Of a stretch of DNA of 64,000 bases, positions 630 to 48,348 are shown one piece after another. The DNA lies in assembly GCA_044892525.1 (NCBI GenBank), contig CM097885.1:70742001-70806000 (forward strand), given 5' to 3'. This stretch comes from Schmidtea polychroa (lineage: Eukaryota). Position 1 is the stretch's first letter. Each line of letters starts with the position of its first letter. The notes beneath the pieces were generated by a model. It had not been told where the DNA came from. It made no database searches and saw only the letters and a program-made list of their open reading frames with translations. The position numbers and the translations under genes were made by a program.

Positions 630-1622
630 TAAAAAGCACAATGCAGAGTAAATTTTGAAGTTTGTATTAAATATTTATTGATTTAAAAAACATGTTATAA
701 ACTGAAGTTTTAGCGTTGAAAGCTCAACAATGTAGAACATTTTTCTATACCTATTATAACATTTTATCAATGATTCGTTTCTTCTCCCAGTCCCAGATAT
801 ATTTGACTCATAATCCGAGTAATTTTCTGACCTAGTATATAATAGTAATTTACATTGAAATGCGAAATGTGTGCTATATCAATCGCGGATTTCGTAATTT
901 TTCAAACTCGCAAGCGCACAAATTATGCAGCTTTTCACAAACGTTGCACAGGCAGAATTTTCTGCGCACATACTCTCCGAGAAATTAGAGAATATGAGGC
1001 AGGTGAGCACTTGTGTTAGCACTACTCACTCGTGTGCTTCCAGTTCGAGTTCTTGACTGACTATAGAAGGACTTACGTCTTCACAGAAAACGAATGTCTG
1101 CTAGATCAATACGATAACCATAAGTCATGGTCATACCTTATTATATCATTACTGTTTAATGTAAATATCATCTACTTGAAACAAACCACAAGTTTTAATC
1201 ACCTACAACATTTTTATTTACACTATGTATATAACATGCTAAGTACAATTTACATCAACAGGGCACAGAAAGAAACAAAAGGAAAACATCTACCGGTCAA
1301 GATACAACTACTACAATATGTTTACACAAGTACACAAACTCACAATCCACTATAAAACTGAACGTTAATCTGACGTCTGGAAGATTCTTGGTTGGGCGCG
1401 ACACGTTGCTTCGATGGATAGCCGTGACCCGTCGCGGAGACTCACATGGCATCACTCCAGAAGGAGGCGGCCTCGGCTTCGACCAACAGATCGGCGAGGT
1501 TTTCTATATCGACCGTTTCCTCCGAGTGTAAATCCACTAGAAGAATAATTCGCGTTTTGTATTGAATTAGTGATTAACAATTTTGGTTAATTTAATGTAA
1601 ATTAATTTGCAATTTAGATCGA

Positions 1623-3065
1623 ATGTCGACTATAAATGAAAAATTGAATAAAATTTCCCAGTTGCTTTCAGAGCACAAATTTACAATTGTCAGTGATCTA
1701 ACTGAGGATTACAAATGTGGAATTTGCAAAGGAATTATCAACAATGCACATCAAATAATATGCGGATGTAATTTTTGTATGAATTGTATTAATCAATATA
1801 TTGGCAATGGCGGGGCTAAATGTCCAGCATGCCAATATGAAAATGTATTAGAGATTTCAAAAAATCACAAATTGAACATACAAATTTCTTCAATTACGGT
1901 GAGATGTCCAAATGAAAATTGCGCTCATGAATGCAAGCTCACAGAAATGGACGAGCATTTGAGATTATGCTCAAAAAGAAATGTGGAATGCCCGTTTGGC
2001 GGTATTGGCTGTCAGTTGAAGGAGATGAGCAAGGATAAATTGAATGAGCATTCCATCTCTAATATTGACAACCACAATAAAATCTTAATTGAAATGATCG
2101 GAGAATTGAGAAATGAAATGAATGAGCTAAAGATAAATGATATGAGAAAAGATGAAGCAATTGAATCATTAAGAAATGAAATCAATGCGATAAAGGTAAA
2201 TCAAATATCTGATTGATTTATTAATAACTGGCATAATTCAGCAAGAAAATCAAGAGCTGAAAACCATGATGAGAAATAGCAATAATAATTTGTGGATCAA
2301 ATTGGATCAGATGGATATCGAGATAAATGACAGGTGCAGAAATGATACGGTCACATCGATAACTGAGCAAATTGAATCTGTGAGAGTAAAATAATTGATT
2401 GAATTGATCTGATCAATTGATTTATAAATATTCAGATCAATCAATTGGAATTGGAACAGCAATTGAAAATTGTCGACAGAAAATGCCAAGTGAGAATTGA
2501 GAGCATTTGATTATTGTTGATGATAAATTGATCTGAGGAATTGAATGGAAATGTGCAAATCATTCACCAGGTGAAAGCTGACAGTGATAGGATGGCGATG
2601 GATATGCAGGAAATGAAGGGGGAAATGGATAAACTGACACGGGAAATGCAGCGAATCAACAAATTCCTGGAAATGCGGTATGATGGGGAGTTGCGGTTGC
2701 CAATCGGTAAAATCAATGAAATGCAATGGATGGGCAGTGACATATTCTACGATTTCCAGAATCCATATAAAATGCTATTGGTGCTGAATAATGCAGCTGA
2801 TAAATTGAAAATATGGCTATGGATTTATTCTGCTGCATTTGATGATGATTTGCAATGGCCAGTGAAGGCAGAAATAAACATTGAAATTGAATCATTAAAT
2901 AATCTTGAACAATCAAAATCATTGACAAAATCACTGACAATCCAAAAACCAGCAAATGATTCAGAGGAACCAAGTGATGCATTATCATTTGCCCATGCAG
3001 ATCTGAATGCATTACAATTGCTTGATAATAATTGCATAATTGATTGTTCTGTTAAATTTGAATAA
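1623..3065 (+). CDS. TRAF-like protein (RING - TRAF zinc finger - coiled coil - divergent MATH/TRAF-C), 4 exons, ~430 aa
   Basis: Exon 1 (1623-2195) has a RING (CGICKGIINNAHQIICGCNFCMNC...CPAC) and TRAF-type zinc fingers (CPNENC...HLRLC; CPFGGIGC...H). Three phase-0 GT-AG introns join everything in frame: 2196-2241 (46 nt), 2380(or 2386)-2435, and 2490-2537 (48 nt). The last exon has MATH-like text (SDIFYDFQNPYKMLL...AFDDDLQWP). Confidence 0.85.
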
Positions 3066-5249: not shown

Positions 5250-6311
5250 TGTTGGGGTTCAGTAGGAACCGAAATTGAAGGTTCGAAATTAAATAATAAT
5301 TAAAATAATAATTAATTACTAAAATAGGAAGTAAAATAAAAATAGTATTTTAAAATTACCAAAAATAGAAATTAAACTATAAAATTAAAACTAAAATATA
5401 ATTAATAATAAATAATTACTAAAAATAGAATTATAGAAATTATTTAAAAATATATAATAAAAATAGTAATTAAACAATTACTATTAATAGAATTAGGTAA
5501 GTAAAAATTATATAAATTGTAGATGAAAATCAGATGGGAGGACGGTGAAAAAAGATCGGACACGACAGATTAAAAGTAGTTCAAAAAGTCGATATAAATC
5601 GAAACTGATTTGCTCGCATTAAGCGACAGAAAATTTACATTAAATTTGGACAGACCAGCATTTGATAGTCTCAGTTGATCAACAATTTTTGATTAAGAAA
5701 CATTAACAAATAATTTGGAATTTTTTATTTTTTCGCTTATCTCTAACTTCTATTGAAGAATTAATTTAAGAAAAAGGGAAGATCAGATTAACAAGTTCAA
5801 CAACCCATCTGAGGTTCATATTCATTTTCGGAATATCTTATAGTTAGTATTATTATTGTCTTATTCTTGAAAATATTTGTTTACTTATTTTAACTAAATA
5901 AAGGGACAATATAACCTCATCACTGATTTTTGTGTTGTATCGTTATTTAATATTAAAATTCATTTGAAAAGAGTTAACCAATTTCTGGGTTGACTCTATA
6001 GCTTAAAATTTGGTGATCTACCCTGTGTCTTTTCCTTACACCTATATCAGGCTGTTGGCGCATTTAGGGCCAGCCTTGATCCTTAGTAACACTCTTTAGA
6101 GCGGTTTGAATAACCGTTTTCTGTACTTAGAGAACGCAGCGTGTTGTATCTATATATGCATATTTAAACGTGTAACTAACCTTTTATTGATAAATAAATA
6201 TTTAAAACATATCTCTTATTTATTTATTTACCTACACGCGTAAATTATTTACTTGGAGTCAGATAGAACATTTTTTGTGTTAGTTCGAATTCATACCCAT
6301 CGAACCTAACA
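5250..6311 (+). repeat. 5' LTR of element 1
   Basis: Same length as 18997-20058 with about 11 substitutions by my manual comparison; TG...CA ends. Confidence 0.97.
6151..6198 (+). promoter_or_regulatory. Putative TATA box (6151-6157) and AATAAA poly(A) signal (6193-6198) in the LTR
   Basis: Motifs sit in the expected U3/R position of the LTR. The AT-rich context weakens specificity. Confidence 0.4.
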
Positions 6312-6314
6312 TTT

Positions 6315-6332
6315 TGGTGAGCCCGACGTGAT
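6315..6332 (+). promoter_or_regulatory. Primer-binding site complementary to tRNA-Trp
   Basis: TGGTGAGCCCGACGTGAT lies 3 nt after the LTR and matches 17/18 nt of the avian retroviral tRNA-Trp PBS TGGTGACCCCGACGTGAT. Confidence 0.9.
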
Positions 6333-6410
6333 AAAATTATCAGCGGGTAGATATTGAAATAAAACAAAATAGCGTTAGGAACTAGAGCCAGAGTAAAACT
6401 GAATAATCAT

Positions 6411-7305
6411 ATGGCAGAGGAAGCTAATGAAAATGCATTTGCCAGATATCCCGCTCTGCCCGTAAAGGCATTCAGCTGTGATCCGGGAGAATTCCCAGTT
6501 TATGTCTGAATATTATCAGATGGCCAAAGCATATGCTTATCCAGATAATATCATGATACAAAGGCTACCTATATATTTGAAGGGGCTGGCAAGAGAAAAA
6601 TATAATGACATTATAGCATTACCAGTTGCTCAAGTACCGAAAACATGGGCTGAAATGAGAGAAGCAATGACTGCTCGAATATTGCCCGGAGATGCGGGAA
6701 GAATATTTAGACAACAATTTTATCATCGGAAACAAAATGCCAATGAACATGTAGGGGAATTTGCACACCAGCTATCATTAATTGCTGAAAGAGCATTTGG
6801 ACCAAAAACCACATGGGCAAAGCCAACAGAATTGTTAGTTAAGGATCAGCTATGGGCAGGACTTACTCCTACAATGAGGAACGCTCTAATATTACATACT
6901 AGTGATGGTTTTGATGAATTGACACGGAAAGCTGTCGTAATTGAAAGCAGCTTGGAAAAGTCAACCATGTTCCTGGTAAACAGTGAAAGAACACCGGTAG
7001 AGTGTTTCAATTGCCATAGAAAAGGGCATATAGCGAAAGATTGTACCAGTAGGAAAATTATGGACAATCGCAAAAGTATACAATGTACCAAATGTGGACG
7101 GAATAACCATGGTGCGGAAAATTGTAGAGTGCAGAATTTGCAATGCGAAAAATGTAAACGAAAGGGACATATTACTGCGGTCTGTAAGACTAGAAGTTCT
7201 CAGAACAGCAATAATTTTAGTACAATTAAAAGAGAGGATGTAAATTCATCAAGAAAGATAAAATGTCACGGATGTGGGAAATTCGGACATATGATGAGGT
7301 CATGT
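6411..7305 (+). pseudogene. gag: Gag with four CCHC zinc knuckles (frameshift near 6485-6495)
   Basis: ATG at 6411 (MAEEANENAFARYPALPVKAFSCDPG) is out of frame with ORF 6478. Capsid-like text (FYHRKQNANEHVGEFAHQL) is followed by knuckles CFNCHRKGHIAKDC, CTKCGRNNHGAENC, CEKCKRKGHITAVC and CHGCGKFGHMMRSC (7003-7305). Confidence 0.9.
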
Positions 7306-7893
7306 CCTCAGAACCAGAGTGGAAATACGAGTCAGTTCAATAAAAATACCGATAAGGGTAATGTGAACAAGTCTAAGACAACTTTCATGGTTAATCAGGA
7401 TCAAGGGTTAACGTATCTGCAACAACTGGAAATGGAAATCCAGGAGGAAAAGAATAGGTTGGCTAGATTGACCGACCAAGAAGGCACCATCTTCATGGTA
7501 GAAGTTGGAAGAGATGAATATCTCAGAAAAAAGGACTCCGTTAGAGAGGACTTCCAGGAAACGGAATCAGAGGAGAGTTCCGATGATGAACCTAGTATGG
7601 CCACCATACTAAGCGAGTTCGATAGAACCTTGCCAGGGAAAGCAAAGGTAAAAGAAGGGTCAGATACCCTAACAAAATGTTTAAAACTGGTGGATTCCAG
7701 ATATGAGTACCAGCAGAAGCTGGCCAGACAATTGGGAAAATTGGGAGAAACAGAAATTAAAATTCACGAAATCGATACAGTAGTAAAACTGATATCGCAG
7801 GTCGAAGATGATCCAAAGTATCATAACGACACGTACAAAATCCTAAGGAAATTAGGAAAACTCATGGAACATGAGTGGGATCTCCAAGATGCC

Positions 7894-8100
7894 CAGCTCA
7901 ATATAAAACTCCCACAGGATAAAGAGTATAATCTCGATATAAATGTAAGAAGTCGAGCCGATAAATTAACGGAAGCATTGGCAAGTATTAAGCACCAAGG
8001 ATATGACTTATACTTATGTGGAACAAAACTAGAAGCAAATCAAACACTTCTACAGAACGGGATACTTCCAGGTGGAGTAACGAAGCTCACAGCAAAGAGA
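7894..8100 (+). other. Ubiquitin-like domain 1 in the element-1 polyprotein
   Basis: QLNIKLPQDKEYNLDI...YDLYLCGTKLEANQTLLQNGILPGGVTKL parallels ubiquitin MQIFVKTLTGKTITLEV...[28 protein letters not shown] (by-eye alignment). Confidence 0.65.
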
Positions 8101-8415
8101 GCACAGAAGCCAGTAGCAGTAATGGATCAAGATAGCGTATTCTTGATTACTCAAATGGAAATAGAGAGTTTGGAAGAAACTCAACAATTAACCCAGCGAC
8201 TAGGGTTAGAATTGCAGAAATCTCCACGAGATGGAGAAACCATAAAGGAAATACTGGACTGGATATTAGTATTACGAATACCAGTAGATTTGTTGGAAGC
8301 AATAATTCCACTTATACTACCAGTAGTAAAGGAAACAAGCCCATTCCAGACGCAAATTGAAGCGCTGATGAGGAAAAATGGGAAAGCTATCCGAAGTCAG
8401 CCTGATAGACAAGGC

Positions 8416-8637
8416 AACATTAATCTAGACGTGCGAATGATGGGAAAAGAACCATTAACAATGATTTATAATTGCTATATCAAGGTTAAAATATTGAGGA
8501 GAGATGTAATTGCCACCGATCAAACTACAGGTATATTCCTGATAATGGTCCATGGCAGGCAAGTGGATGATGATGAATATTTAGTGGATGTGGGTTGTCT
8601 ACCGCTGGCAACAACCACGGTAATGATCATCCCAGTA
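8416..8637 (+). other. Ubiquitin-like domain 2 in the element-1 polyprotein
   Basis: INLDVRMMGKEPLTM...FLIMVHGRQVDDDEYLVDVGCLPLATTTVMII, where HGRQVDDDEYLVDVG parallels ubiquitin [15 protein letters not shown]. Confidence 0.6.
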
Positions 8638-9453
8638 ACTCCACCAGAGTCCCAGTGGTCATTAATGAGACTGCCAGATATAGCAAACGAAATTGCGGAA
8701 GAGATTGAGGAAATAAGACTAGAGGAAATTAATCCCTGTCCAATGGTGGACATTGACGAGGAAGATTACTTCTCAGAATACGTCAGATTAAATCCAGGAG
8801 AAACAAACGTAGGAGCTACTACGTCACAAGCAGTAACAAATCTGGAGACTGAAAAACCTCCGGAGAAAGTGAAAAAAGATGCACGAGGACGTCCTAGAAA
8901 GGATCAAATGAAACCTCCACCCAAGGAGCAGTTAAATCCAGATACGATTCGGAAAATTCAGTTAAAAACATTAGCAGGGATAGCCCAAGAAATGGACGAC
9001 CAGGCGGGAGATGAGACAACGTCAGAAAGGTCGTTATTATGGCAACGTATCCAACAAATGATCGGGATTATCAGGCCCGAATGGAGAATTCCAAAAATCA
9101 AGGGGATCGAAGTAAAGAAAATAAAGAAAGAGGTCAAGAAGACAATGGAAAGAGTATCCTAAGATGTATCAACTAGAGATATACAGGATGCCATAGAAGC
9201 ATTCGTGCAGCAAGGATTAACGAGAGGGAAAGTGGTGACATCACTATCATTGTTAATTCAAAATGCCTTAGCACGGATAGGGGATGATAAAAGGCTTATA
9301 GAACGAGAAATCGATCAAATAGTCGAAATGATAGATTATTACCTGGAGGTATGGATGACCGTAAACAAATTTTGGGAAAAGGAAACGATTCCAAAACCAC
9401 GATATGAAGTCGTGGAAGAGGCCATAAATAATGGTAGTCCAGGCACAGGAAAC

Positions 9454-11310
9454 ATGACAAGCATGATCCTGATGTTCCTAGTGATGATGGGCATATTAAA
9501 ACAAACAAATTCATTAACAGTATTTGACTGTGGAAACCCTAAACTATCTCGGGTATATTCATTAGTAGATGCAATTGAGTGCAAAGAGGCGTATCCCGAG
9601 AAGGTTCATCAAGGGGAAAAGGTAGAATATTATGTCTACCAAGAGAGTGAATTTTATAGAACAACGATAAAGGAATGTAGAGTTCAAAGAGCTACATTCT
9701 AATATTATTGCGGTAGTAATAGCTATTCTGCTTTTCTATCCGCAACATTAATACCAAGGCCGGTAAACATAATGCCCGAAGATTGCTTAGATGCATTTCG
9801 AAAAGGAAGTGTGAGGATAGACAACGAGGTATCAATCTCAGCAGAAATTGGGAAAACATTGGGAATAACAATCACTCGAGGAGGAACAATTGCCTCAGAT
9901 GGAACCTGCGAAGGTAGAAAGAAAATTCGCGGTAGCAATTTAGTTTCCTATGTGGTAGACATAGAAGATTACTCAGTAGAGCTACGAGAATACGAGGGAA
10001 CATTCGATGTGGCCACAGGAAAATTGATGGCACATCCGCAATGAAATGCCAAGTTCGGTAGTTGTAAAACGGGAACCACTACATTAATCTACGAACAAAT
10101 GAGAGATCATTGTAAGCTGGCCTTCCTCAAGAAAATTCCTTTTAGAAAATTAAATGGAACTAAATACCGGGACTCCCAGAATCCAGAAAAGGTTTGGGAT
10201 AAAGCAAAAACGTTGAAGAAAATCAACAAACAAGAGAAGGAAGATATCGAAGAGGAAAACACACCTCTAGTATTGATATCGGAAGACAAGACGGAAGCAA
10301 TTCGATTTGTCCGAAAAGATAAAAAGACTAAATGTGGGAAAAGAGTATACGAGACGAACTATAAAGGAATTTTCCTGTCAAGAGAATATATCCGGAATTC
10401 CAAGGTCCTACACGTAAAGGATATCAAAATCACGAATTATATAAATAATAAAGTAGATTATTTATACCATGATTTGCAAGGACAAATGCAAGATATGTAT
10501 CAAGAGGTGATACTAAACGATTGCAAGCTTAATCGTGAAATAGTCCGAAATAGATTAGCAATATCTATCGTTAACCCAGAGTTGGTTACTCCAATGTTAT
10601 TGGAAGATGGAATGTTTGGCAGAATCATGGGAGAAGCTATATATAGCTATGAGTGTAAACCAGTTGAAGTACAATTAGCCAGATTTAATCAATGCACTCT
10701 AGAACTGCCAGTATCTTACCAAGGAAAATTAAGATTTGTTATGCCAGTAACCAGAAAGTTACTTGAGAAAAACGCTAAACCTCAACCAGCTATATGCAAC
10801 CCGGCAATATCACCATTATATAAAATAAATGACATGTGGATATCTCTGCCGGAAAGGAAACCATCTACACAACGGGTAGAGACCCTGGAGGTAACTAAAT
10901 TAAAGGATAATCTGGAATTCAAGTCACTAGACGAATTAGCAAAAGGAGGGATCTATACTCCCGACGATATCGAGGAAGCAAGAAGGACATTGCTATTCCC
11001 ACAAATCAGAGACAGAGGTATCACGGAAATAACTTATCATGATAACTTAATAAGACCAGATTACAATCTATTATTTGGACCGGAACACTATAAAGAAGCG
11101 GCAAAGAACGTAATGATGAAAATATGGGGACGGTTTACCAATTTTGGTATTTTCGTCGCGGGATGTTCGGGAATTTACGCAATATTTGTAATTCTAAAGC
11201 TGATAATTACACAACTGATGTCAACATATAGCATATTCAAAATTGGGGGATGGTCATGGAAACTGCTATTAGGACTATGTCCTATGTGTGTAGAGTTTGC
11301 ATTATTCAAA
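9454..11310 (+). pseudogene. env: Envelope glycoprotein, chuvirus-G/herpesvirus gB-like (class III fusion), in frame between Gag and protease; internal stops at 9700 and 10042
   Basis: Signal-like MTSMILMFLVMMGILKQTNS, then VFDC, ECRV...YYCGSNS, EDC...GTCEG, YINNKVDYLY, CKLNRE..RLAI..NP, GEAIYSYECKPVEV and CTLELPV motifs. TM FGIFVAGCSGIYAIFVILKLII at ~11143-11220. Confidence 0.75.
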
Positions 11311-11985
11311 CATCACAGAAAGGAAATTAAAGAAATTAGACAGAAACATTTGGTCAAACATGAAGTAATTGGAACAGAAATGGAGGAGTATTCTAGTTAT
11401 CGGGACGATAACAATTCAAAGGGAGGAGGTAATGGAGGCTCTCGTGAAACATCTTCAAGATCAAATCAATCACGAAAACAGAACTACAACAAAAAACCGA
11501 ATCAGCAACAAAGAAAATCGAGATTTAAGGAATATCTTCCTCCATATGACCAATCAAAGGAAATATACGTGAGAAAACAATCCTCAGAAGGAGAATATGA
11601 CAGTTCCGACCAAAAATTCGACATAAGGTCACCCAGATTCAAGAAAAGTCCAAGATATGTACAATTGCCAACTTTGAGGAGTTTACCATCCGTACCAAAC
11701 GAAGGGCGGGAACATTCAAGGGAAACAACACTCAGAACAGGACGACACCAATGGAAAATCGGTGAAGATACCATATTTAATAATCTGACATGTTCAACAT
11801 TGCCAGAATTACCTAAAGTGCACTATCCAAAGGAAGCGTTAAAGTCAATTAAAGCTAAATTTAAAGAGTATAATCCTCAACTGAGTGATCCTGAATTACT
11901 GGAAGCAGAACAAACTAGAGCAAATACAATCGGTATCTCGCACGATACTATCCTGATGGTCAATAACCCAGTGAACTTGGATAAA

Positions 11986-14040
11986 AAGCCAATGATAAAA
12001 ATAAGAGTGAACCGACATACAGTTAATGCGGTAATAGACTCAGGAGCAGACGGTACTATAATTGAAGCTAAATTGTTAAACCATCATGAACTGCAGTCGC
12101 TAAAACCGGCAGGAGTAAAATTAACAGGAGCAAACGGATCCTCATTAAACGTAATAGGGTCATTATCATGCCAGATTAAGCTATGTGACCAGGAGCTCCA
12201 TCACGACATCATAGTAATGAGAAGCCTCCCAGCCGAATGTCTATTAGGTATGGACATCCTAAAAAGACTACGAGGAGTAGTATTCGATTGTGCATCTGGA
12301 TTGTTAATCCGAGCTCGAGGTAAAAAGAGAAAAATTTACAACGATGATACAGCTTATATAGATCATACAACTATCATACCACCCAGAGCAGAAACAGTAT
12401 GGTTTGTAGCTACAAGCAATAATTGGGAAGGTGAAGTTGTATTTGAACCAGACGAAAGATTTTCGGAGAAATACAATATACCAGTTACGCATAGCGTAGG
12501 TTTAATAGTCAATGGCAGAATACCAATCAGGGTAGCCAATCTGGACATTAAACCACTTTACTTATATCCAGATACCAGAGTGGGCAGAATCTGGAAACAA
12601 AACGAACCACAAGCCACGGGAGAAGGGTCGATACTCACCGTAAAGGCAGAAGAAAGAGATCCAGACATTGAGTACTATGAGGCACCTACAGCAAACAGCA
12701 AAGTGCTAACTAGAAAGGAAAATATTCAAGTAAATATGTTATTGAGGAAATATGACCAGGTATTCGCAAAACATGAATACGATCGGGGAAAGACAAACTT
12801 GCTAGAACATGAGATTGTTCTCACCAATACAAAACCTATAAAGTTGAGACCATACCGTATTCCATTCAGTCTGGAGGAACCATTAGATAAACAGGTGAAG
12901 CTGATGTTAAAACATGGCATAATCAGGCATAGTAAATCACCATATCAATCACCAATGATAGTGGTGGCCAAGAAGGATGGATCAGTACGATTATGTAACG
13001 ACTATCGCATGGTTAACGAAGCAACATGCAAAGATAGCCATCCATTGCCACTGTTAGATTATATCTATGGACGCATGAGAAACGCAAGGTTCTTTTCAGT
13101 AATGGACGCCCAAAAGGGATTTTATCAAATTAAGCTAAAAGATAAGACTATACCAATAACAGCGTTTTCTACGAGTATGGGTCATTACGAATATAACGTA
13201 ATGCCATTTGGACTCACCGGAGCTCCAGTCACATTTCAAAGAGCAATGAATTTGATGCTCATGAATGTACATCATGCGATGGTATACATTGACGACGTCA
13301 TAGTATTCTCGCCAAATTTGGAAAAACACTTGGAACATTTGGAAGATGTGTTCAAGAGGTTGATCAATGCTAACATGAAAGTGAAACCTACCAAATGTAA
13401 ATGGGCCGAACCAGAAGTGGTATATGTTGGCCATATTATATCACGAGACGAGGTTAAACCCGATCCAGCTAATGTCGAAAAGGTAAAGAATTTCCCGGAG
13501 CCTAAAACCGTTAAACATATCAAAGGGTTTTTAGGTCTAGTTGGATACTACAGAAAATTCATTAGAAACTTTTCGGTTATAGCTTTTCCACTCACGCAGT
13601 TAGAAGGCAAAAATGTCAAATTTGTGTGGGGAACAGAACAGCAAGAAGCATTTGATATGCTCAAGGAAAAACTCATCAAGCCACCTATATTGCGATTTCC
13701 AGACTTTGAGAGACAATTTTTGGTTATGACAGATGCCAGCACTCGGGGCATAGGTGCTGTGCTAGGTCAGAGAGATGACCTAGGAGATGAGTATGCAATT
13801 GCATACGCTAGCAGAGGATTAAAACCGCACGAAAGAAACTACGCAGTGATAGAACTAGAGGCTTTAGCAATTGTGTATGCTATAACCCAGTTTAGGACTT
13901 ACCTATGGGGTCGAAAGATCATAGTGTATACCGATCATAGACCATTACAGTGGCTGACGAAACACACAATGGATACATCAAAACTGGTCAGATGGGCATT
14001 AATTTTACAGCTATATGACATAGAAATCCATTATAGAAAA
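11986..14040 (+). CDS. pol: Aspartic protease, reverse transcriptase and RNase H (part of ORF 10099-14376)
   Basis: VIDSGA at 12037; YRIP, LCNDYRMVN, MDAQKGFYQI, MPFGLTGAP and YIDD (13285); TDAS (13729), ELEALAI, YTDHRPL and NADALSR. Confidence 0.97.
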
Positions 14041-14376
14041 GGAGATCATAATGGAAATGCAGACGCTTTATCAAGAATGGACCAGGAGGAGGAAGCAGAG
14101 AATGTGAAGGAAGGACGTCTCGAAGGGACTATCTTCACACTGACTCGAGAAGTCAACCGGCTAGCTGATTTAATGGAGGCAAAAAAAGCTGACGAAGAAA
14201 TCAATGTCATTCGACAAGCCTTAGAGGCAAAATACGTGCCCACAGAATTCACGAAATATTGGGAAAAGAATAAAGACAAGTTTGTGCTGGAGGAAAGATT
14301 AGTCAAATATTCAGATGTAAGAGACAATGTTCTAATGGTCCCTAAGAAATACCGTAAAGCACTCATGTTGCAGTAA

Positions 14377-15390
14377 CACGATGGAGCCTTAGGAGGCCAC
14401 CTGTCATCCAGAAAAACATTGTCAAGGTTAAAACAAAAATATTTTTGGCCCGGCATGAAACAAGATGTTAAAACCTGGTGTCAGACATGTAAGATCTGTA
14501 TCACCAGAAGGAATACCGGCAAGAAACCACACGTACCAATGAAGCCGATGCCTGTACCATCCACACCTATGGAAATGACGGCAATGGACGTGTTGGGGCC
14601 ATTCAAAGAATCTAATAGCGGAAACAAGTACATATTAGTTTTCTGCGACTACTTGACTAAGTGGCCAGAGGCCTACCCGATGCCTAATCACAAAGCTGAT
14701 ACCATAGCTAGAATTTTCGTTGAACAAATTGTCTTTAGGTATGGAGTACCTACAAAGTTATTAACGGATCGGGGAGCTGATTTCATGAGTAATTTGCTCA
14801 AAGGAATAAATGATTATTTCGGAGTTCTAAAGTTGAACACTTCCCCATATCACCCACAGACGGATGGGCTAGTAGAACGATTTAATGGAACACTAGCTAA
14901 TATGTTAGCATCATATGTAAATTCAGGGCAAACGGATCGGGATATCCACATTCCATCCTGTTTATTTGCATACAGGAATGCAGTACACGAAGGAACAGGT
15001 GAAACGCCATTTTACCTAATGTACCTAAGGTAAAGTAAAATGCCAGTAGATCTGTTGTTTTTCCCTAAAGCAACACAGTATTTAGATCAGGAAGATTATC
15101 TAATGGAAATGAAGGAAAGAATGCAGGAAGCATGGGCTAGAGCAGGTCTCAGTATAAAATATAATCAGGAGGCATCCAAAGATTATCATGACCGAAAAAC
15201 CAAGGATCATGGCATATTGGTTGGAGACCAGGTGATGTTGGAAAGTCATTATAACAAGAAAGGCTTATCACCAAAACTCATGCGAAATTTCAAAGGGCCA
15301 TACGAGGTATTGAGAACCACAGACACAAATCTCATATTACAACTTGTAGCCAACAGAAAAGCAGAACCAATAATGGTGCATGCTAATCGG
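14377..15390 (+). pseudogene. int: Integrase: HHCC finger, D-D(35)-E core, GPY/F module; in-frame stops at 14374 and 15031
   Basis: HDGALGGH...CQTCKIC; D at 14587, D at 14767, E at 14875 (35-residue spacing); KGPY at 15292-15303. Confidence 0.95.
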
Positions 15391-15531
15391 TGTAAAAAGT
15401 GCGAAATCTCAACAAAAGGAACCTCTGGAAATTCAAAAGTAAAAGCACCAGAGAAACAAGTGAAACCAAACACTACCGAAGAACCACAAGAACACCGATA
15501 CCCATTGAGATCACCGGGTGTTCCAAAATCG

Positions 15532-16410
15532 GTAACCTTTTTGCTGATAATAAGCTGTATGATGACTTTGGCAATGGCAAAAAGGGATAGAAAGGCATAT
15601 TTTCAGCCTATGGCGATGCAAGTGGAACATTTACATTTTATAAGAACGTATCACGGAATTAGTATACTCACCACGTGCGATAACGCTACAAAATTCAATT
15701 TACATTTCTACAACAAGTATTTGCGGATCCGCCAACTCAATTCAGAAGAAAAAGAGTGGGATTTATATGATTTAAAAGCTGAGACGGATTACAAACTGCA
15801 CATCGCAGCATCAAGGTTATACCAGAGCGGTTGGTATACCTATCACGTATCAAATTGGATCCTAAGGATGGCGGATTTCACAAATCGCATATCGATATCC
15901 TACGAGAAGGAGAAAGTAAAGTTTAGCCAGCAAATTAACAGGGAGGAGGTGAAAATCAGCATTCTAGACGGATCAACCACGAGAGGAACATTATGGTTAG
16001 ACCAGAACTCTCCCTCCCAAGAAATGTATCTAAATCAGTCCGTAGAATATTCGGTTCTAGTTATATACTATAGTCCGAGGAAACGGGAGGACGATAGGTG
16101 GTTCGAGGTATTTGAGGAGATATTGCCTCTGAGACAACCCGTTATAACGAAAACACCACCAAAAGTCGTCAGGGAGAACATGGTGATACATCCCGCAATG
16201 TGGCAACATCTTAGACAGTTGCCACCTATCAAACAAATATCTTGCCAAACGCCCCCAAATCTGACAAACTGTTGTGATTGTAATGCCATCACGAACTTTA
16301 ATGCTGGATATATTCTGAAAATACCCATAGGGGTATGGATTACGGTATCGGCCGTACTATCGCTAGTAACTACACTGATAGCTATGGGTATTTGGACCAA
16401 GCTATATTTT
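15532..16410 (+). other. Second type-I membrane protein module after integrase: signal-like segment, FN3-like ectodomain, Cys-rich stalk, TM
   Basis: VTFLLIISCMMTLAMA; FN3-like strands WDLYDLKAETDYKLHIAAS (15757-15813) and YLNQSVEYSVLV (16027-16062); NCCDC; TM IPIGVWITVSAVLSLVTTLIAMGIW. Confidence 0.6.
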
Positions 16411-16584
16411 AGACAAGCCATAAGGGCTTACGATGGAGTACTGATGTCGCAATTATGACAATTACAGACTCCCCCGAGGGAAAAATCACATATAAATATT
16501 TATATATATCTTAAAATCTATATTTACGTAGAGCTCCAGGTAGCATTAAAATTCAGCATATGTAGATCTTTTATAATAAGACTC

Positions 16585-18691
16585 ATGCATATCTTTTTAG
16601 CCTATTATGGCATATCAGTATATCTGATATTATGGTTAATGATTTTTATTTCAGGAATGCAGAGCCACCCAATATCCCAATACCAAGGAAGGCATAGCAT
16701 TATACGTGCTACGACCTTGCTAAAGGAAAAACTCATTTATAAAAACCTGGAGAAGCAGGTTATAGAGCAAGGTAGAAAAGGCCAAAGGCACTGGTTTTAC
16801 GGACATTGTTCAGGCATACCCAATAATTTCAAGTTTGACGAGGCCCCAAAGCGTCAAATGATTATTTCAAGAATCCCGGGCAAGCATAACGGCAGCATTA
16901 GGCTTACCGAGGTCATGCCTGAGTTTGGCAGACATAGTCTGACCAACCACCTGTGGATACACGCCATTAACAAACCATTTACGGTTTATGTTCCTGGCGC
17001 CACAAACCCTATTTTGCTGCAAAAGCACACAACCCTCGAAATTGAAAACGGGGATGGAAGGGAAAAGAACATCTCACTGTTATGTGAAGGTATAGATACC
17101 ATCATAGCAATGGAAATTCTGGAACCTCACAGAGAAACACAAACGAGATGGGTTAATGACCCAAACTGGACATATAATGTCAACGATAACGACATTAAAA
17201 CATTTAAGTCTTTCGTTAGACAGCGTTTGGACCCTAGACAAGAGGATAACCTCACCATTTTCGTAGCAGCTCACTACGCTACACTACGACAATTCCTGAA
17301 ACCGGCAATCGAGGCCATCTCAATCTCACATTTCAATGGCGATCTGATACTCAACACGAGAGTTACCCCCAGAGCACAGGTCAAACATTACCAATCGCAT
17401 GCGCATGGTATGACCGAGAAACAAATAACAGGACAGTTCGACGGAGAAGACTGTGCCGAAAGAATTAGAAAAATCTCCGATGGGAAGATCATCGTGGGAT
17501 TGCTAGTAAAGGACCTATTAGAAGTAATCAGATTCCCAATGCAGCGCGCACTCGGAATCCGTGAGTTAGGCGCAGCTAAATGCCTCGAAAGTAGGGACCT
17601 AAAGAAATGCAACGGGTATTACCGTTTGGCATATCTGGCAAAAGCAGTCACTGGTAAAGAGGCACATCACTTCTCAGACCTACAAACGGAGAATGATGTC
17701 ACAACCATTAAGGAGATTTACGACAATTTACGAAACATCTGGGTTGATGACATTTCACCAGACACCCGGAAAGAGGTGGTGTCTTCACAAATACAGCAGA
17801 TGGAACCCGGTACCTCAAGCAGGCAGAAACCTCTAGCTATGGAGAGCTATGTGAAAGAAGATATCCCTAGGTCGAAGTTGCTGAAAATAGTGGAAGAAGA
17901 TTCCTTGTCGCCGCCAGCCATTTCAATTGCTGATGAAGACGACTATGCCACTTGTGAGAGTGCAGACGATAACTGCCTCCAAGTCACCCTTACCATTGAC
18001 GGTAGAGTGGTGAATTCGGCTAAAATGGAAGTAGAAAAACCTCAGCCAGCAGAAAAGTTAGTTGAACGGGTCACCAAGATCCTGAAAGCGTTGGCGCCGT
18101 TGGGTGAACCCAAACACGGAGCAGTTTAAAAAGAAAACAACGGAGAAATCCCCCCAGAAAGAGGACAAGGAGAAAAATGTCCCTACCTCTACAAAAAGGA
18201 AAAAGGAGATTCCTAAGAGTACGAAAAAGAAAATGCCTAGGATATCCATCCAGGATGAGGATGACGATCCCCTAGAAACCCACTATCAGCCACCAGATCC
18301 TGCGTTGACCAAGATATTGGCAACAAAGAGTGAACCCACGATTGCAGGAGAGCCTATTATCGTGAAGGAAGGCGAGTTCGTCGGAAGGGGCAACTCAATC
18401 AAAATACGGGAAGATCTCGACAGGGAAGATCCTAGTTGGTGGCAGAGACCCGACAGCAAATGAAAACCGCGTATCAAGGAATACGACGGAGGCCCAATCC
18501 ATGAAGTAGCCGTATCCAATTTCCCCAATTACGGAGTATTGGAGGCTAATGAGGGCTCATATATCTTCACCTCAATTGTGTACAAAGAGGTAAGTACACG
18601 GGAGACTTTGGTGGTCAGTTACAGACCTGACATTGTAGAACAAAGGATCCGTAACGAAAGTGCCAAGGTCATGAAAAGTAGAAAATACTAG
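16585..18691 (+). pseudogene. 3' accessory coding region: hydrophobic segment, degenerate AlkB-like beta-helix (~16850-17120), degenerate DEDDh/ISG20-REX4-like exonuclease (~17251-17727), charged tail via frameshift near 18110-18125
   Basis: Same frame as the polyprotein, with no stop between TGA 16456 and ATG 16585. AISISHFNGDLILNTRVTPRAQVKHYQSHAHGM...KIIVGLLVKDLLEVI...ENDVTTIKEIY follows the REX4/ISG20 pattern. Coding continues in ORF 18104-18463 and, past a TGA, to TAG at ~18691. Confidence 0.6.
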
Positions 18692-18984
18692 CAATTCGGC
18701 TATGTATTCAAGGGACCTAGCAATTTGCTATACGTCCTCAATCCCAACACCTTCGACAACTCAATCCAATCCAGATATTCAAATTGATAGACATTATGAA
18801 CAACATTTGATTAATCTGATTTTTGATTTTGTTTAACAATCTTTGATCATTTTGATTTTTACTTTGATTATTTTATATATATTTTAATCAGTTGTTTTTA
18901 TTTTAATTTTATAATTTTATTTTTATGTATCCGCTGCAATGGTCTTATCTTTACCGCTTTAATTTTCGGGACGAAAATCTTGTT

Positions 18985-18994
18985 AGGGGGAAAA
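18985..18994 (+). promoter_or_regulatory. Polypurine tract of element 1
   Basis: AGGGGGAAAA followed by CA, directly before the 3' LTR. Confidence 0.85.
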
Positions 18995-18996
18995 CA

Positions 18997-20058
18997 TGTT
19001 GGGGTTCAGTAGGAACCGAAATTGAAGGTTCGAAATTAAATAATAATTAAAATAATAATTAATTACTAAAATAGGAAGTAAAATAAAAATAGTATTTTAA
19101 AATTACCAAAAATAGAAATTAAACTATAAAATTAAAACTAAAATATAATTAATAATAAATAATTACTAAAAATAGAATTATAGAAATTATTTAAAAATAT
19201 ATAATAAAAATAGTAATTAAACAATTACTATTAATAGAATTAGGTAAGTAAAAATTATATAAATAGTAGATGAAAATCAGATGGGAGGACGGTGAAAAAA
19301 GATCGGACACGACAGATTAAAAGTAGTTCAAAAAGTCGATATAAATCGAAACTGATTTGCTCGCATTAAGCGAAAGAAAATTTACATTAAATTTGGACAG
19401 ACCAGCATTTGATAGTCTCAGTTGATCAACAATTTTTGATTAAGAAACATTAACAAATAATTTGGAATTTTTTATTTTTTCGCTTATCTCTAACTTCTAT
19501 TGAAGAATTAATTTAAGAAAAAGGGAAGATCAGATTAACAAGTTCAACAACCCATCTGAGGTTCATATTCATTTTCGGAATATCTTATAGTTAGTATTAT
19601 TATTGTCTTATTCTTGAAAATATTTGTTTACTTATTTTAACTAAATAAAGGGACAATATAACCTCATCACTGATTTTTGTGTTGTATCGTTATTTAATAT
19701 TAAAATTCATTTGAAAAGAGTTAACCAATTTCTGGGTTGACTCTATAGCGTGAAATTTGGTGATCTACCCTGTGTCTTTTTCTTACACCAATATCGGGCT
19801 GTTGGGGCATTTAGGGCCAGCCTTGATCCTTAGTAACACTCTTTAGGGCGGTTTGAATAACCGTTTTCTGTACTTAGAGAAAGCAGCGTGTTGTATCTAT
19901 ATATACATATTTAAACGTGTAACTAACCTTTTATTGATAAATAAATATTTAAAACATATCTCTTATTTATTTATTTACCTACACGCGTAAATTATTTACT
20001 TGGAGTCAGATAGAACATTTTTTGTGTTAGTTCGAATTCATACCCATCGAACCTAACA
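18997..20058 (+). repeat. 3' LTR of element 1
   Basis: Direct repeat of 5250-6311, followed by TSD GTCT. Confidence 0.97.
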
Positions 20059-22129: not shown

Positions 22130-22696
22130 ATGAAATTTTTTCAATGACAATTTTACATGAAAATTATGGTCTAAAATTTTCAATTAAGTTCTAAAATAAA
22201 GTCTAAAATTTTCAATTAAGTAAATTATGGTCTAAAATTTTAAATTAAAGTAAATTATGGTATATATTTTTAAACTTAAGTAAATTAAAGATAAATAAGC
22301 AAATTAAGGTCTTAAATTTCAATTAAGTAAATTAAGGTCTAAAATTTTCAATTAAGCAAATTAAGGTCTAAAATTTTCAATTAAATTAAATTAGGGGTCT
22401 AAATTTTTAAATTGAATTAATCAAGGATCTAAAATTAAACTAAAGTAAATTAATGATAAATAGGTAAATTATGGTCTAAAATTTTCAATTAAGTAAGTTA
22501 AGGTCTAAAATTTTCAATTAAATAAATTATGGTCTAAAATTTTGAATTAAAGTAAATTATGGTATATATTTTTCAACTTAAGTAAATTAAAGATAAATAA
22601 GCAAATTAAGGTCTTAAATTTTAATTAAGTAAATTAAGGTCTAAAATTTTCAATTAAAGTAAATTAAGGTCCAAATTTCGAATTAAAGTTAATTAA
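22130..22696. repeat. AT-rich ~29-30 bp minisatellite (aagtaaattaaggtctaaaattttcaatt-like); resumes at 24998 beyond the piggyBac
   Basis: Tandem degenerate units seen directly on both sides of the piggyBac. Confidence 0.85.
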
Positions 22697-24993
22697 CACT
22701 AGATTTACGGACGAAATTACATACCTATTTTTACTGAAACCCGTCATATTGACGGCTACATTAAAATGCTTGTATTGAGCAAAATTTATTGAAAAAAATA
22801 TATATTTTAAAAATCTGATTTAATATAAAAAACAAAGATGAATATATTCATAATTTATTTCATTTAATGGCAAAATATTTTTTTTTCAACATATTATTCA
22901 ACATATTTTTTGCATACATATATCATTTTTTGTGTGCATTTACCACAAACATATTTATTACATTTAATACAAATATTATTGGTTTTGTTTTTTTTTACAA
23001 TATCCGATTTGGCAGGATTTGCGTATATTAGACTTATTTTCTATTGACGATAATGGGTTAGAACCTTTTTGGTATTCACTTCGAATATTCCGCTGCAAGT
23101 TCATCAGCCAATTGAAAAAGAAATTTTTTTCTGGATATATTTTCCCCCGTGGTTTCCTTGTATAGCACCCAAGCATTAATTCCCGACAAATTTAAAATGT
23201 TGTAGAAGACTTGTAGAGGCCATCTACGAGACCCTGATTTTACGCTATATTTCCGTGCCATTTGGTCGACTACATCAACACCAAATTTGGTTTGGTTATA
23301 AAAAGAAACAGTTTCTGGCAAACGTTTATTATTATCTTCAATTTTTACAAATTTATGTTATGAGCTGAGTAGTAAAACCTTTTTTTGTGGTTTACTTTTA
23401 TATATCGTTAGAACACATGACCCAGATTTGTAAAGAAGTGTAGAGAAGCGTTTCATGTTATCTTTCTTATTTTTAGCTGATTTTGGCAATTCCCTTTTGT
23501 TAGCTCGTATAGTTCCAACCAAAGTTGTTCTTTTTGCAAATAATTTATTTGCAAGTGGAATGCTCGTAAAAAAATTATCTGTCGAAATATTTCTTCCACG
23601 TCCTAAATACGGTTCAGCAAGTTTGAGCACTATGAACTCGCTCAAAGGTACTGATCCCCGAGTTTCGTCTTTACCTAAGTACGGGAAGCCATTTAGCAGA
23701 TATTTACTATTTACGTCTGCCGCCAACCAAAATTTTGTACCAAATTTATCTGGTTTATTTGGCATATATTGCGTAAATCGACATCTAGCCTTTGTGGGGA
23801 ACAATTGTTCATCAATGGTAATGTTTTCGCCAGGCTTATAACAGGCTTGACAATTTTCAATAAATTTGTTCCATGTATAGGAAATTAACGCAAACTTATC
23901 AGTTTGTAAACGTTGACTTCGTTCAAATCGTTTGTCAAACCGTATGAATCGGAGAATTTCCATAAATTTGTCTCTGCTCATTGTCTGTGTGAAAAAACTC
24001 GGTCCCCATATCTTTGACCGTAAATATGAAGCCTTCAAAGATTTTGCTTCGTAAGCTCCACGTGCATATAAAATTGCTATGAAAGCGCGTAACTACGATT
24101 TTGATATTTTCCACTCTTTTTTCAAAATTCGAAATGCCTCTAATTCAATGCAAATTTTTATATGTTCCAACATACTTTCATCAATTATCAGTTCAAATGC
24201 GCTAGGTACATTACCTAGCATAATATTCCTTTTGGCGTAAGCCGTTGGTCCTCCTACATCTGTAAATTTATTGAAAAATTGTGGTCTGCCACTACTTACA
24301 CCTTTTTTTAGGGTTTTGCATATGGTCCCATCAACAGATATTTCATTTTCTATGTCTCGTTTTTGTGATTCACCAGGAATTTCAACTTCGCTGTCCGTTT
24401 CTGAAAGAATTCGCAATCTTTTTTTGCCGCGACATACATTAGAAATACTTTCTTCTTCAGTGTCTAAGAGTTCGATTTCATCAGAATCAGAATACTGTAC
24501 TTCATTCTCGCTTTCACATAGCTCAACCTCATTTCTATCAAAATTAGAATCGGAGCAGTTCTCATTTATACCGGTAATTTTTTGTAGTAATTCAGCAATC
24601 CTACGAGATTTCCTCATAATAGCCCTATTCAATTTAGGAAAACTAGATAATATATACATATTTATTATGAAAATATTTTGAACTTACCCTGAAAAATTAA
24701 ATCTATGCTCACAAAATTATTTATGAATGAATCCGTAATATTTGTTGTACAAATAAAAAATGTCGATTTATATTGAAATTAGTTAACCCGTCAAATTGAC
24801 GGATTTTCGGGAAAATAGGTATACCACATACCGATATTTGAAATTAAGATAGCCAACGAAAAATAAAATAGAATATATATTCATATCAATAAACCAATAA
24901 TTTACAACATAATAAAAAAAATCTTTCATTTTATTAATTTAATAGATATGAAATTTGAAACCCGTCAAATTGACGGGTTTCGTAAATCTAGTG
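22697..24993 (-). mobile_element. piggyBac DNA transposon (2,297 bp), defective
   Basis: TTAA TSD at 22693-22696 and 24994-24997; perfect 13-bp TIR CACTAGATTTACG; three subterminal CCCGTCA-N-TTGACGG palindromes (~22737, ~24786, ~24957). Confidence 0.95.
22894..24617 (-). pseudogene. piggyBac (PGBD4-like) transposase pseudogene
   Basis: Catalytic motifs ITIDEQLF, STDNFF and GVDVVDQM; C-terminal Cys-rich domain RKSCQIGYC...CIKCNKYVCGKC. In-frame stops at 24093 and 23358, frameshifts near 23085 and 22990. Confidence 0.92.
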
Positions 24994-24997
24994 TTAA

Positions 24998-26236
24998 GGT
25001 TCAAAATTTAAAATTAAAGTAAATTAAGGTTCTAAAAAATTAAATTAAAGTTAATTAAGGTCCAAATTTTTAAATTAAGTAATCAATGGTAAAAAAAATT
25101 TTAATTGAAGTTAAATAAGTAAATTAAAGTAATAATTTTTAAATAAGTAAATTAAAGTAAATTAAAGTAAGATTTTAAAATTTATTAACAAAAAGTTGAA
25201 ATAATAGAAGGTGTTTGAGAATTGAAATTTTTTAATGAAAATTTTTATGAAATAATTTTTTAAGTAATTTTAGATGGAAATTTTTATGAAATATTTTTTA
25301 AATGACAAATTTTAATAATAATTCAACAACAAACCAACAACTTAGTACCAACAACCAGTAAATTACGAACATGTATTTACAACCAGATACCTACAACTAG
25401 TTACTAACAACCTGATACCAACTACTCACGACCGTCAACAACCAGGTACTAAGCATCATCAACCAACTACTAAGTACCTACAACCTACAACTAGTTACTA
25501 ACAACCAGTTACCTGATACTAAGTACCTACAACCACCTAACAAGTACTAACAACCAAAAACAAGCAACCAACTAGCTACCAGATACCAAGTACTCACAAC
25601 CGTCAACAACCAGGTACTAAGCACTGTCAACTAGATACCAAGTACTTACAACCAGATGACCACATGAAATTATTGGTTAAATAAGTAAATTAATGTCTAA
25701 TTTTAAAATTAAGTAATCAATTATCTAAATATTAAAGTTAAAGTCAATTTCAGATGAAAGTTTTTCTGGGATTTTCAATGTTAATTTTAGATGCAAATCT
25801 TCATCAATTAATCAATGACCACATGAAATTATTGGTAAAATATGAAAATAAGGGTTATATTTAGTTGTTACGTAAATTATGGTATAAAATTAAGTAATAA
25901 AAAATAATTAGGTAAATTAAGGTTAAGTAAATTAAAGTTAAAAATTTTAAATAAGTAAATTAAGGTTCAAAATTTAAAATTAAGTAACCAATGGTTCAAA
26001 TTTTAAATTAAAGCTAAATAAGTAAATTAAAGTAATAATTTTTAAATAAGCAATGTAATAAGTAAATTAAACTAAGATTTTTAAATTTATTATCAAAAGA
26101 TTGAATAACCACCAACTTTTTTGAGAAATGTAATTTTTAATGAAAATTTAAATGGAATTTTTTTTAAGTTAATTTTAAATGTAAAATTTTTTAAGTTAAT
26201 TTTTAAAGTTAATTTCAATGAAATATTTTTCAAAGT
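24998..26236. repeat. Continuation of AT-rich satellite with an embedded degenerate AAC/ACC-rich tandem array (~25320-25660)
   Basis: Repeated aagtaaattaa and caaccag/tactaag motifs; the latter recur at ~26443-26550 and ~27030-27330. Confidence 0.7.
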
Positions 26237-43074: not shown

Positions 43075-43869
43075 TAGCCTATTTCGGTCTATGGGCAATA
43101 TTTTATTCATACTTGGAAAAACTCCTTTCAATACATGAGGAATATGCTGTAATACTAAGGATGAAAGATTATAATTTTTAAAAAAGTTATTGATTTTATC
43201 CTTTTCAATATTTAAAAAAATATTTTAAAAATATTCAATATTTTAAAATATAATAGGTATTAAAATATGACTCGCAGACAGTAAATATACTTCGATCTTA
43301 GCAGGAATTTCACCATTCCTAAATTATAAAGCCTTTTTAAAGCTAATTAGAGGTCAGTAATATTACTAATGAGATACGATTGTAATCCTGGCAACTCTTT
43401 ATAATTTCTCGATACATGGTTGTAGCGATAGCCATCATGTGACGGCATGCCGGGAAAGTCTGAAATTAACGTCCATAAATACACAATTCTTTGATCATTG
43501 TGAAATACATGAAAAGCTAAGAATGAATTTTCAAAACTATGTTCTCAATATCAATATCTAACTCCTGTGAATTGTGTAAACAATTATCTGTGCTTAGCAA
43601 TTTGCTTTCACTACATTTTTGTTATCTGCTTCCAAGTTCATGTATAACGATTAATGAATTCCGAAGTTCGCTATTCCATTTTTACATGATCACAAAATTA
43701 TAAGACTTTTTTTTCGTATTTTCTTATTGTATTCGCAAATACTATTTCTGGGGAATTCTGAGAATGATATAACTGGAATTACTGCATTTCCCCGCATATA
43801 CCTTGTGAATTTCGACCAAACCTGTGAAAAAAGAATTGATATGATGTAGGATATTTACAGTCAGTGCCG
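43075..43869 (-). pseudogene. hAT transposase remnant, unit X (target of element 2; completed by 62454-62480)
   Basis: Near-identical to 62481-63612 except for a ~300-bp deletion; decayed hAT motifs (KANC..H, WLSLQPCIEK). Confidence 0.65.
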
Positions 43870-48340: not shown

Positions 48341-48348
48341 TACAAATT

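Follow-up and report, generated by a model that had tools for sequence, protein, structure and literature searches.

An FN3-like type I membrane protein predicted behind the integrase of gB-first gypsy retroelements

Introduction

Ty3/gypsy elements with the order gag-env-pol have been surveyed as GAG-ENV-POL errantiviruses, and members from Platyhelminthes, Nematoda and Bryozoa carry an env of the HSV/gB type between gag and pol (Chary and Hayashi, PMC13524379). That survey points out that HSV requires gD and gH/gL besides gB, names the entry of gB-type errantiviruses as unexplained, and examines Pol C-termini only for chromodomains (PMC13524379). The words 'fibronectin' and 'FN3' have no occurrence in its main text and in the text of seven of its supplements (figures lie outside this text, and long cells in it are incomplete). 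Burro elements, which belong with GYPSM1 to the giant gypsy elements of dugesiid planarians, are likewise described as having an in-frame env that separates gag from pol; the section on Burro names no FN3 domain or second membrane protein after the integrase (PMC6431247).

Two other lineages of LTR elements offer partial parallels. Atlas virus, a hookworm belpaovirus of the Bel/Pao type, encodes a Gag-Pol-Env polyprotein with a class II fusogen, in which Gn and Gc adjoin as one phlebovirus-like block (PMC9094657). LTR elements of bdelloid rotifers carry ORF3 genes downstream of pol, among them small TM ORFs and DEDD exonucleases, as separate ORFs that mostly replace a true env; 'fibronectin' and 'immunoglobulin' do not occur in the available text of that paper (PMC5408684). 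The available parts of PMC8532177 and PMC11410931 add nothing further on structure.

Here, we analyze a Ty3/gypsy LTR element of 14.8 kb, located at 5250-20058 of a 64,000-nt stretch of Schmidtea polychroa DNA (hereafter, the window). An original prediction, made from the letters of this DNA, held that a second membrane protein with an FN3-like ectodomain is fused directly after the integrase (IN). Our literature search, whose scope was running text rather than Repbase entries and paper figures, yielded no description of such a cassette, and an FN3-like type I membrane protein behind the IN of gB-first gypsy elements is apparently new.

Results and Discussion

Overall structure of the element

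The domain order in frame 1, as assigned with Pfam, is gag, gB-type env, protease (PR), reverse transcriptase (RT), RNase H (RH) and IN (Table 1). The two LTRs are 1062 bp each and 98.96% identical, with TG...CA termini and a 4-bp target-site duplication (TSD), GTCT. The PBS we take to be that of tRNA-Trp. LTRs, PBS, polypurine tract (PPT), TSD and the Ty3/gypsy order PR-RT-RH-IN, all features of the errantivirus class, are thus present; instead of the uninterrupted ORFs of that class, the window copy has five in-frame stops (9160, 9700, 10042, 14374 and 15031) and one frame change, in the Gag region near 6490. The element is a decayed copy of a gB-type GAG-ENV-POL errantivirus family, of the class described in PMC13524379. 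The damage, spread over 6466-16455, is heavy for LTRs that differ by ~1% (a young insertion, or sequence error). The flanks in the window are mostly 21-30% GC; this composition, a TRAF-like gene and the gB stretch (see below for both) make a dugesiid planarian the probable host.

The gB-like fusogen that the original prediction placed in the same element is confirmed by the PF24664 match (Table 1), and hydropathy assigns to it an internal signal (9442-9498) and a TM segment (11149-11205). By visual comparison, its domain I-II stretch is closest to Smed_errantivirus_4, which shares with it some 41 of the initial 62 positions (PMC13524379, supplement file 3). Two stretches of mild hydrophobicity lie in the spacer between Gag and gB (7900-8800), which has no Pfam match; the equivalent spacer in relatives holds a ubiquitin-like domain.

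Table 1. Features of the LTR element, in window coordinates
Feature	Position	Strand	Basis
5' LTR (TG...CA), GTCT TSD just upstream	5250..6311	+	LTR comparison, ends
Primer-binding site, tRNA-Trp-like	6315..6332	+	sequence directly 3' of LTR
Gag, CCHC knuckles and long spacer; stop at 9160	6411..9159	+	Retrotrans_gag, zf-CCHC matches
gB-type (class III) env; stops at 9700, 10042	9442..11349	+	PF24664 Monjiviricetes_fusion, three pieces, best E 1.2e-64
Aspartic protease, RT, RNase H	11995..14016	+	Pfam
Integrase (Zn finger, core, SH3-like C-terminus), stops at 14374, 15031	14377..15513	+	Pfam; ends HRYPLRS
Putative internal signal, small-x-small end, own start codon absent	15532..15579	+	hydropathy (19-residue peak 1.74)
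FN3-like domain 1, 7 predicted strands, L-x5-Y strand E-F motif	15601..15867	+	model strands 7-95
FN3/Ig-like domain 2, 7 predicted strands	15889..16131	+	model strands 103-183, pLDDT mostly 68-85
Pro/Thr-rich stalk with four-Cys cluster (16243-16281)	16132..16326	+	sequence
Predicted TM helix	16327..16395	+	hydropathy peak 2.12; confident helix in alignment-free model
Predicted cytoplasmic tail (~20 residues), S-x-L end of class I PDZ type, then stop	16396..16458	+	motif
Separate downstream ORF, DEDDh exonuclease-like, apparently degenerate	16657..18129	+	Atlas lead 0.89 to RNase_T clusters; ISG20L2 E 0.13
3' LTR, polypurine tract before, GTCT after	18997..20058	+	LTR comparison, ends

A signal-to-TM cassette directly follows the integrase

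A cassette spanning 15532-16455 follows IN directly and in frame, and consists of an internal signal, two predicted β-sandwich domains, a stalk, a TM segment and a short tail. Frame 1 is open from 15034 until a TGA at 16456; the cassette is therefore unbroken in the window copy. The fused second membrane protein thus holds as originally described, and the motifs cited for it all lie in frame 1: HRYPLRS at the end of IN (15493-15513), the signal-like stretch, the strand motifs YDLKAETDYKLHIAA (15766-15810) and YLNQSVEYSVLV (16027-16062), the Cys cluster and the TM segment. The end point given at the time, 16410, falls inside the cassette, but the protein runs 45 nt further. We take the TGA as the true end since the protein fits the C-terminal motif of its clade (see below); its last residues are of class I by the usual definition of PDZ motifs.

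By hydropathy-based prediction, the window protein has the features of a type I membrane protein, namely a signal, an ectodomain of ~250 residues with three glycosylation sequons, a single TM segment and a tail. The signal/TM pair on which the original prediction depended is present by the same measure. The charge bias across the signal is reversed for type I (+2 on the N-side, +3 on the C-side).

The first Met in frame upstream of the signal lies 55 residues away, and just 5 of the 20 proteins compared (the window protein and 19 relatives) have a Met within 10 residues of the signal. The second signal is thus most readily understood as lying inside the polyprotein, and the gB region opens likewise. 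The original claim of two separate surface proteins stands insofar as two products are expected, but they would come from one reading frame. A scan for protease sites, trained on seven protease-like sites, placed none of its best 15 of 3274 positions in the linker between IN and signal. The standard 'Pol' annotation of such elements would hide a further protein.

The cassette is a trait of the gB-first clade

A search with Pol plus tail returned 1067 matches among 3230 candidates, and the best 120 of the 1067 were examined (relatives are given below by P number). The 20 closest relatives, at 47-54% identity, rank ahead of ordinary gypsy elements within these 120. In a tree of RT-RNase H with 55 rows (P0021 was dropped for its incomplete RT, and P0022-24, P0049 and P0061-P0121 lie outside it), the window element and 19 relatives form one branch with support of 100/98. 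The sister of the window element is P0002 (100/98), and the window branch is long.

A signal-to-TM cassette is found after IN in 19 of the 20 clade relatives, compared to 2 of 100 other proteins among the best 120 of 1067, by a hydropathy rule derived from the clade itself and with a limit of 520 aa for the ectodomain. Because of this limit, five outside matches with longer, ordinary env-like tails were not counted. The lone exception in the clade, P0005, ends after an extra protease copy. Among the same best 120 of 1067, gB precedes IN in all 14 gB-bearing proteins, 13 of which carry the cassette (12 from the clade, plus its sister P0050). The cassette is a conserved part of the gB-first gypsy clade, a conclusion that we regard as firm, and the original concern that the segment might be missing from most family members does not apply to the 19 of 20 clade relatives within the 120 examined.

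Topological signals persist across the window protein and 19 relatives. The N-side of the signal is the more basic in 15 of 20 (reversed in three, including the window protein), and the C-side of the TM segment in 15 of 20 (reversed in two). Glycosylation sequons in the 20 cassettes number 101 against 52.9 expected, with the Pol control also above expectation (82 versus 58.6). A C-terminus of the form S/T-x-V/L/I occurs in 10 of 20 clade proteins versus 8 of 100 others, and a C-terminal Val in 13 of 20 versus 7 of 100; both counts are drawn from the best 120 of 1067, in which kin are not independent. The tails of the clade vary from 22 to 129 residues, and three contain PPxY.

These observations bear on the possibility that the cassette is neutral cargo or chance read-through, i.e. 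a captured gene fragment without a job. Very low sequence conservation, and the lack of a database homolog of the window ectodomain in the searches described below, would suit such a fragment. Nevertheless, the cassette is in frame and open to its stop in 19 of 20 relatives, at RT identities down to ~55%, and its signal, TM segment, topology bias and tail motif have been kept. This explanation is largely refuted, and we consider it very improbable.

The element and its relatives share with Burro and GYPSM1 a huge polyprotein, an env between gag and pol, and accessory domains, with ubiquitin-like and ankyrin domains occurring in Burro/GYPSM1 and also in the clade relatives; the window element, at 14.8 kb, is far shorter than the >30 kb of Burro/GYPSM1 (PMC6431247, as described there). 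Unlike Burro, the window element has no BIR, BCL2, MATH or ankyrin domain among its Pfam matches, and no named Burro sequence is among the matches listed in the Pol-plus-tail search.

Predicted fold of the ectodomain

The ectodomain is very probably a tandem of β-sandwiches, and these are probably of the FN3 type, both grades being a matter of judgement. A model based on an alignment of 17 rows (the window ectodomain and 16 relatives) consists of two seven-strand sandwiches, with a pLDDT of 70.5 and a pTM of 0.48. Since the rows are only 8-18% identical to the window ectodomain, the model leans on the relatives. Foldseek found 174 matches to it at E <= 0.001 (best E 3e-6), the top ones being the FN3 tandems of LAR, integrin beta4 and fibronectin, and the FN3/Ig-like fold suggested originally is supported by this comparison. 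Whole-model TM-scores against these matches are low (0.27-0.38) because the inter-domain angle differs. Models made free of an alignment also have domain 2 folded. The alignment-free model is poor overall (pLDDT 43.3), and none of its Foldseek matches reached E <= 0.001; the first-ranked was Tencon, a designed FN3 (E 4.3e-3). A wide fold search with this model was discarded, its matches having been taken up by the TM helix.

Searches with profiles lean the same way. Against PDB sequences, the 17-row profile has 19 matches at E <= 10, the best being contactin-1 (E 0.0083), and 18 of the 19 are FN3-bearing proteins; the single ectodomain sequence has none. Pfam fn3 (PF00041) scores 13.4 bits on domain 1 (E 0.09) compared to a gathering score of 25 bits, does not match domain 2, and matches one of the 17 alignment members (E 0.062). 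As the gathering score is not reached, we use the label 'FN3-like' rather than PF00041. The fold is well supported by prediction, with FN3 as the best call. A Pfam match to DUF5703_N (E 0.002-0.015), below cut-off, was set aside. With VIA-align, FN3, C2, glycosidase Ig-like and designed Ig domains are tied at Z 7.3-8.6, and domain 2 gives a tie among Ig-like folds at Z ~8, while Foldseek, Atlas clusters and the PDB profile search all lean to FN3. The nearest Atlas clusters are fn3 (0.92; recognition 1782 with 159 shared features, weak by the tool's own measure).

The Tyr-corner motif of FN3 strands E-F is L-x-P-x-T-x-Y. Domain 1, which aligns in register with the modules of relatives, has the Leu, Thr and Tyr and lacks the Pro; domain 2 retains only L-x5-Y. 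The Leu is the sole nearly invariant column across the 17 rows, and the alignments of the 17-row profile with contactin-1 and neogenin fall on this motif. Among the relatives, a Cys pair together with a C-x2-L-x5-Y motif is found in 24 modules from 14 proteins. When the query was left out of the profiles, the window ectodomain did not stand out from shuffles, of which 5 in 500 and 23 in 1000 matched its score, and the P0002 ectodomain is likewise not above shuffles in leave-query-out profiles.

A sequence search of the window ectodomain against 1.84 billion representatives returned no match. Two of 3583 shorter candidates matched the segment, each with coverage of about a quarter, and were read as the end of IN; the 17-row profile matched none of 4060 longer candidates, a negative that the tool itself flags as weak. 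The original prediction had suggested looking for host FN3 receptors as donors. None was found in these sequence and profile searches, and, as they returned no ectodomain relative, no host donor is named.

Rapid divergence and exchange of the ectodomain

Sequence change in the ectodomain far outpaces that in RT or gB. P0011 and P0012 have 58% ectodomain identity, compared to 95% for both RT and gB, and P0015 and P0017 have 48%, compared to 85% for RT and 97% for gB. A further close pair has 45% versus 88% for RT, and P0008 and P0010 have 23% versus 87%, with ectodomain identities of ~20-27% representing the floor of global alignment. The gB stretch of P0015 and P0017, 97% identical beside an RT at 85%, suggests a recent env exchange.

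Signal, TM segment and tail motif persist while the ectodomain diverges. Relatives have from one to three ectodomain modules; P0016, P0018 and P0019, which are nested in the clade, have instead a short Cys-rich non-FN3 module in this slot, together with a PPxY tail, and the sister P0050 has yet another ectodomain. The module of P0018 has no Pfam match. With FN3 modules in one to three copies, Cys-rich modules or others in the same position, the cassette is fixed in position and topology and exchangeable in its ectodomain. The Cys cluster named in the original prediction is real but private to the window protein, and we rejected it as a family feature: 13 of 19 relatives have no Cys within 70 residues before the TM segment.

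The region between IN and signal varies as well. Extra aspartic-protease copies are inserted here in P0004, P0005, P0011-P0015, P0017, P0018 and P0021, and ankyrin repeats in P0013, P0021 and P0122; they may serve to release IN from the membrane anchor. Ubiquitin-like domains, as well as ankyrin domains, are carried by clade members.

This architecture could also belong to a trafficking or assembly anchor, whose TM segment and tail hold Pol, or the site of assembly, at a polarised membrane and whose ectodomain is an exchangeable spacer. Such a role would agree with an ectodomain that varies in module number from one to three, or is of another kind altogether, between a persistent signal, TM segment and tail end. 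The signal is joined to IN until cleaved, and several relatives have the extra proteases at this junction. On the other hand, a spacer could do without folded domains and without the Cys pair and E-F motif that are retained in the 24 modules of 14 proteins, and the TM segment and tail would be detached from Pol once the signal is cleaved. An anchor function is, in our judgement, rather improbable.

Proposed processing and function

In intact members, a single long polyprotein would thread the ER membrane twice. Gag would be in the cytosol, followed by signal 1, gB in the lumen, a TM segment, PR-RT-RH-IN in the cytosol, signal 2, the FN3 pair and stalk in the lumen, a second TM segment, and the tail in the cytosol. 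Cleavage by signal peptidase would yield a type I membrane protein at approximately 1:1 with gB, and two type I glycoproteins would be released from one message. We infer this release by analogy with the polyprotein processing established in flaviviruses and bunyaviruses. Displayed at the surface, either on particles or where producer and target cells touch, the fast-changing FN3 ectodomain would bind a host cell-surface partner and so provide attachment or tropism for gB, and the PDZ-type tail would place the protein in a particular membrane domain.

We favour this attachment role because the outside of the protein changes fast, its anchor is fixed, and the company of gB is near-universal; that the cassette is an attachment or cell-tropism partner of the gB fusogen is a serious possibility, which we rate a little short of an even chance. 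A partner for gB is not obligatory, as rhabdovirus G and baculovirus GP64 act alone, with attachment and fusion performed by one protein. Gn of phleboviruses, the receptor-binding partner, is likewise the more variable of its pair, as presented in PMC9094657. Several observations count against attachment: the non-FN3 modules in P0016, P0018, P0019 and P0050; a second element of the window with a signal-to-TM cassette and no gB or pol (see below); the sequon excess of the Pol control; the protease-site scan, which placed none of its best positions in the linker; and, for the window protein, the reversed charge bias of the signal and an ectodomain that is not significantly similar in sequence to the modules of relatives. 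Additionally, the tails, with their 22-129 residues, PDZ-type ends and, in three cases, PPxY, point to an action inside the producer cell.

The last of these features would suit a host-modulating decoy, the receptor interference considered in the original prediction. Such a protein would stay on the producer cell and block a receptor, ligand or PDZ scaffold independently of gB, and its effects would be immune damping or superinfection exclusion. The fold is common to cytokine receptors, receptor phosphatases and adhesion receptors, as the profile and Foldseek results indicate, and the class I PDZ end is enriched in the clade (the 10 of 20 versus 8 of 100 given above, with kin not independent). 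Ankyrin and ubiquitin-like domains in clade members, and a cassette of the same plan in the gB-less second element, are also in line with it. The related planarian Burro elements are described as hoarding apoptosis and ubiquitin regulators (PMC6431247). No host donor was found in the sequence and profile searches, one of which the tool itself marks as weak. Clear likeness to the mimicked receptor is usual in decoys, and the missing donor counts against this role. Furthermore, a slot filled in nearly every gB-first element is more in keeping with a central function than with a dispensable one. A decoy thus seems unlikely to us. If the protein were one, its gene would join the accessory genes for host modulation that are known chiefly from large viruses.

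Returning to attachment, we tentatively propose, as one possible picture, a two-part entry machine, in which one polyprotein supplies both a class III fusogen, encoded ahead of Pol, and an adhesion-type FN3 protein, acquired separately and placed after IN. The post-IN position would then be an exchangeable tropism slot, occupied by one to three FN3 modules, Cys-rich modules or others, with a cassette of the same kind in pol-less partner elements. Should the cassette serve in attachment, receptor binding and fusion would have been divided between two proteins independently in a retrotransposon, with a cellular-type FN3 module as the source. The cassette is a concrete candidate helper for the entry of gB-type errantiviruses, a question posed in PMC13524379.

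The original prediction drew a parallel with herpesviruses and paramyxoviruses, and we retain it in a functional sense only. Herpesvirus gD and gH/gL and paramyxovirus HN/H/G are attachment partners of a fusogen, and the same division of labour would exist here if the attachment reading is true. Paramyxovirus attachment proteins are type II β-propellers, in contrast to the predicted type I protein with β-sandwiches in the window. The 50 viral fold library matches listed are generic FN3, phage tail proteins, or unnamed; among these 50, several of them unnamed, there is no sequence or fold link to herpesvirus or paramyxovirus attachment proteins, and no viral relative of the second surface protein was found.

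The arrangement had also been called very unusual for a retroelement. This is to be tempered, as Atlas virus already has two glycoproteins in one retroelement polyprotein, albeit as one Gn-Gc pair (PMC9094657). Atlas virus and related nematode belpaoviruses have in common with the window element a single polyprotein and a variable putative receptor binder beside a fusogen (PMC9094657). In contrast to Atlas virus, the window element encodes its fusogen, of class III, ahead of Pol, and its FN3 module lies behind Pol.

Downstream ORF and other features of the window

The separate ORF downstream of the cassette is located behind a splice-acceptor-like tract, and its first acidic motif appears, by eye, to be lost; its product is possibly an RNA-binding pseudo-nuclease. 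A ToxA_N match on this ORF (E 0.08-0.27) is weak and was taken as chance. The hydrophobic stretch at 16591-16647 probably does not represent a third membrane protein, since it lies over the AT-rich acceptor-like tract that precedes the ATG at 16657. A DEDD-like downstream ORF is a feature that the window element shares with the rotifer elements with ORF3 genes, as the latter are portrayed in PMC5408684. Unlike rotifer ORF3, the TM protein of the window is fused to IN and additional to gB.

The window also contains a second LTR element at 43869-62453, with LTRs of ~4.5 kb (99% identical) and the TSD GCCG. Its PBS is presumably tRNA-Pro-like. It contains no pol or gB detectable by tblastn. A gag (51036-52298) is followed by an ORF in another frame (52265-55687), which ends with a signal (54314), ~360 residues with Cys-bearing β-rich modules, and a TM segment (55448), the same plan as in the main cassette. 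This second ectodomain matches neither profile, no library, and not the main cassette sequence. An older partial copy of the LTR of the second element, ~93% identical, is located at 35020-38172, and the 618-bp flank of the second element is repeated at 43253 and 62973.

TRAF genes are expanded in planarians, and pieces of a TRAF-like host gene (RING, zf-TRAF and MATH) are found at 1596-3062. A broken transposase lies on the minus strand at 23358-24683 and, by eye, is presumably piggyBac-like. AT-rich tandem repeats with a unit of 29-30 nt occur at 22160-22715 and 24990-26210.
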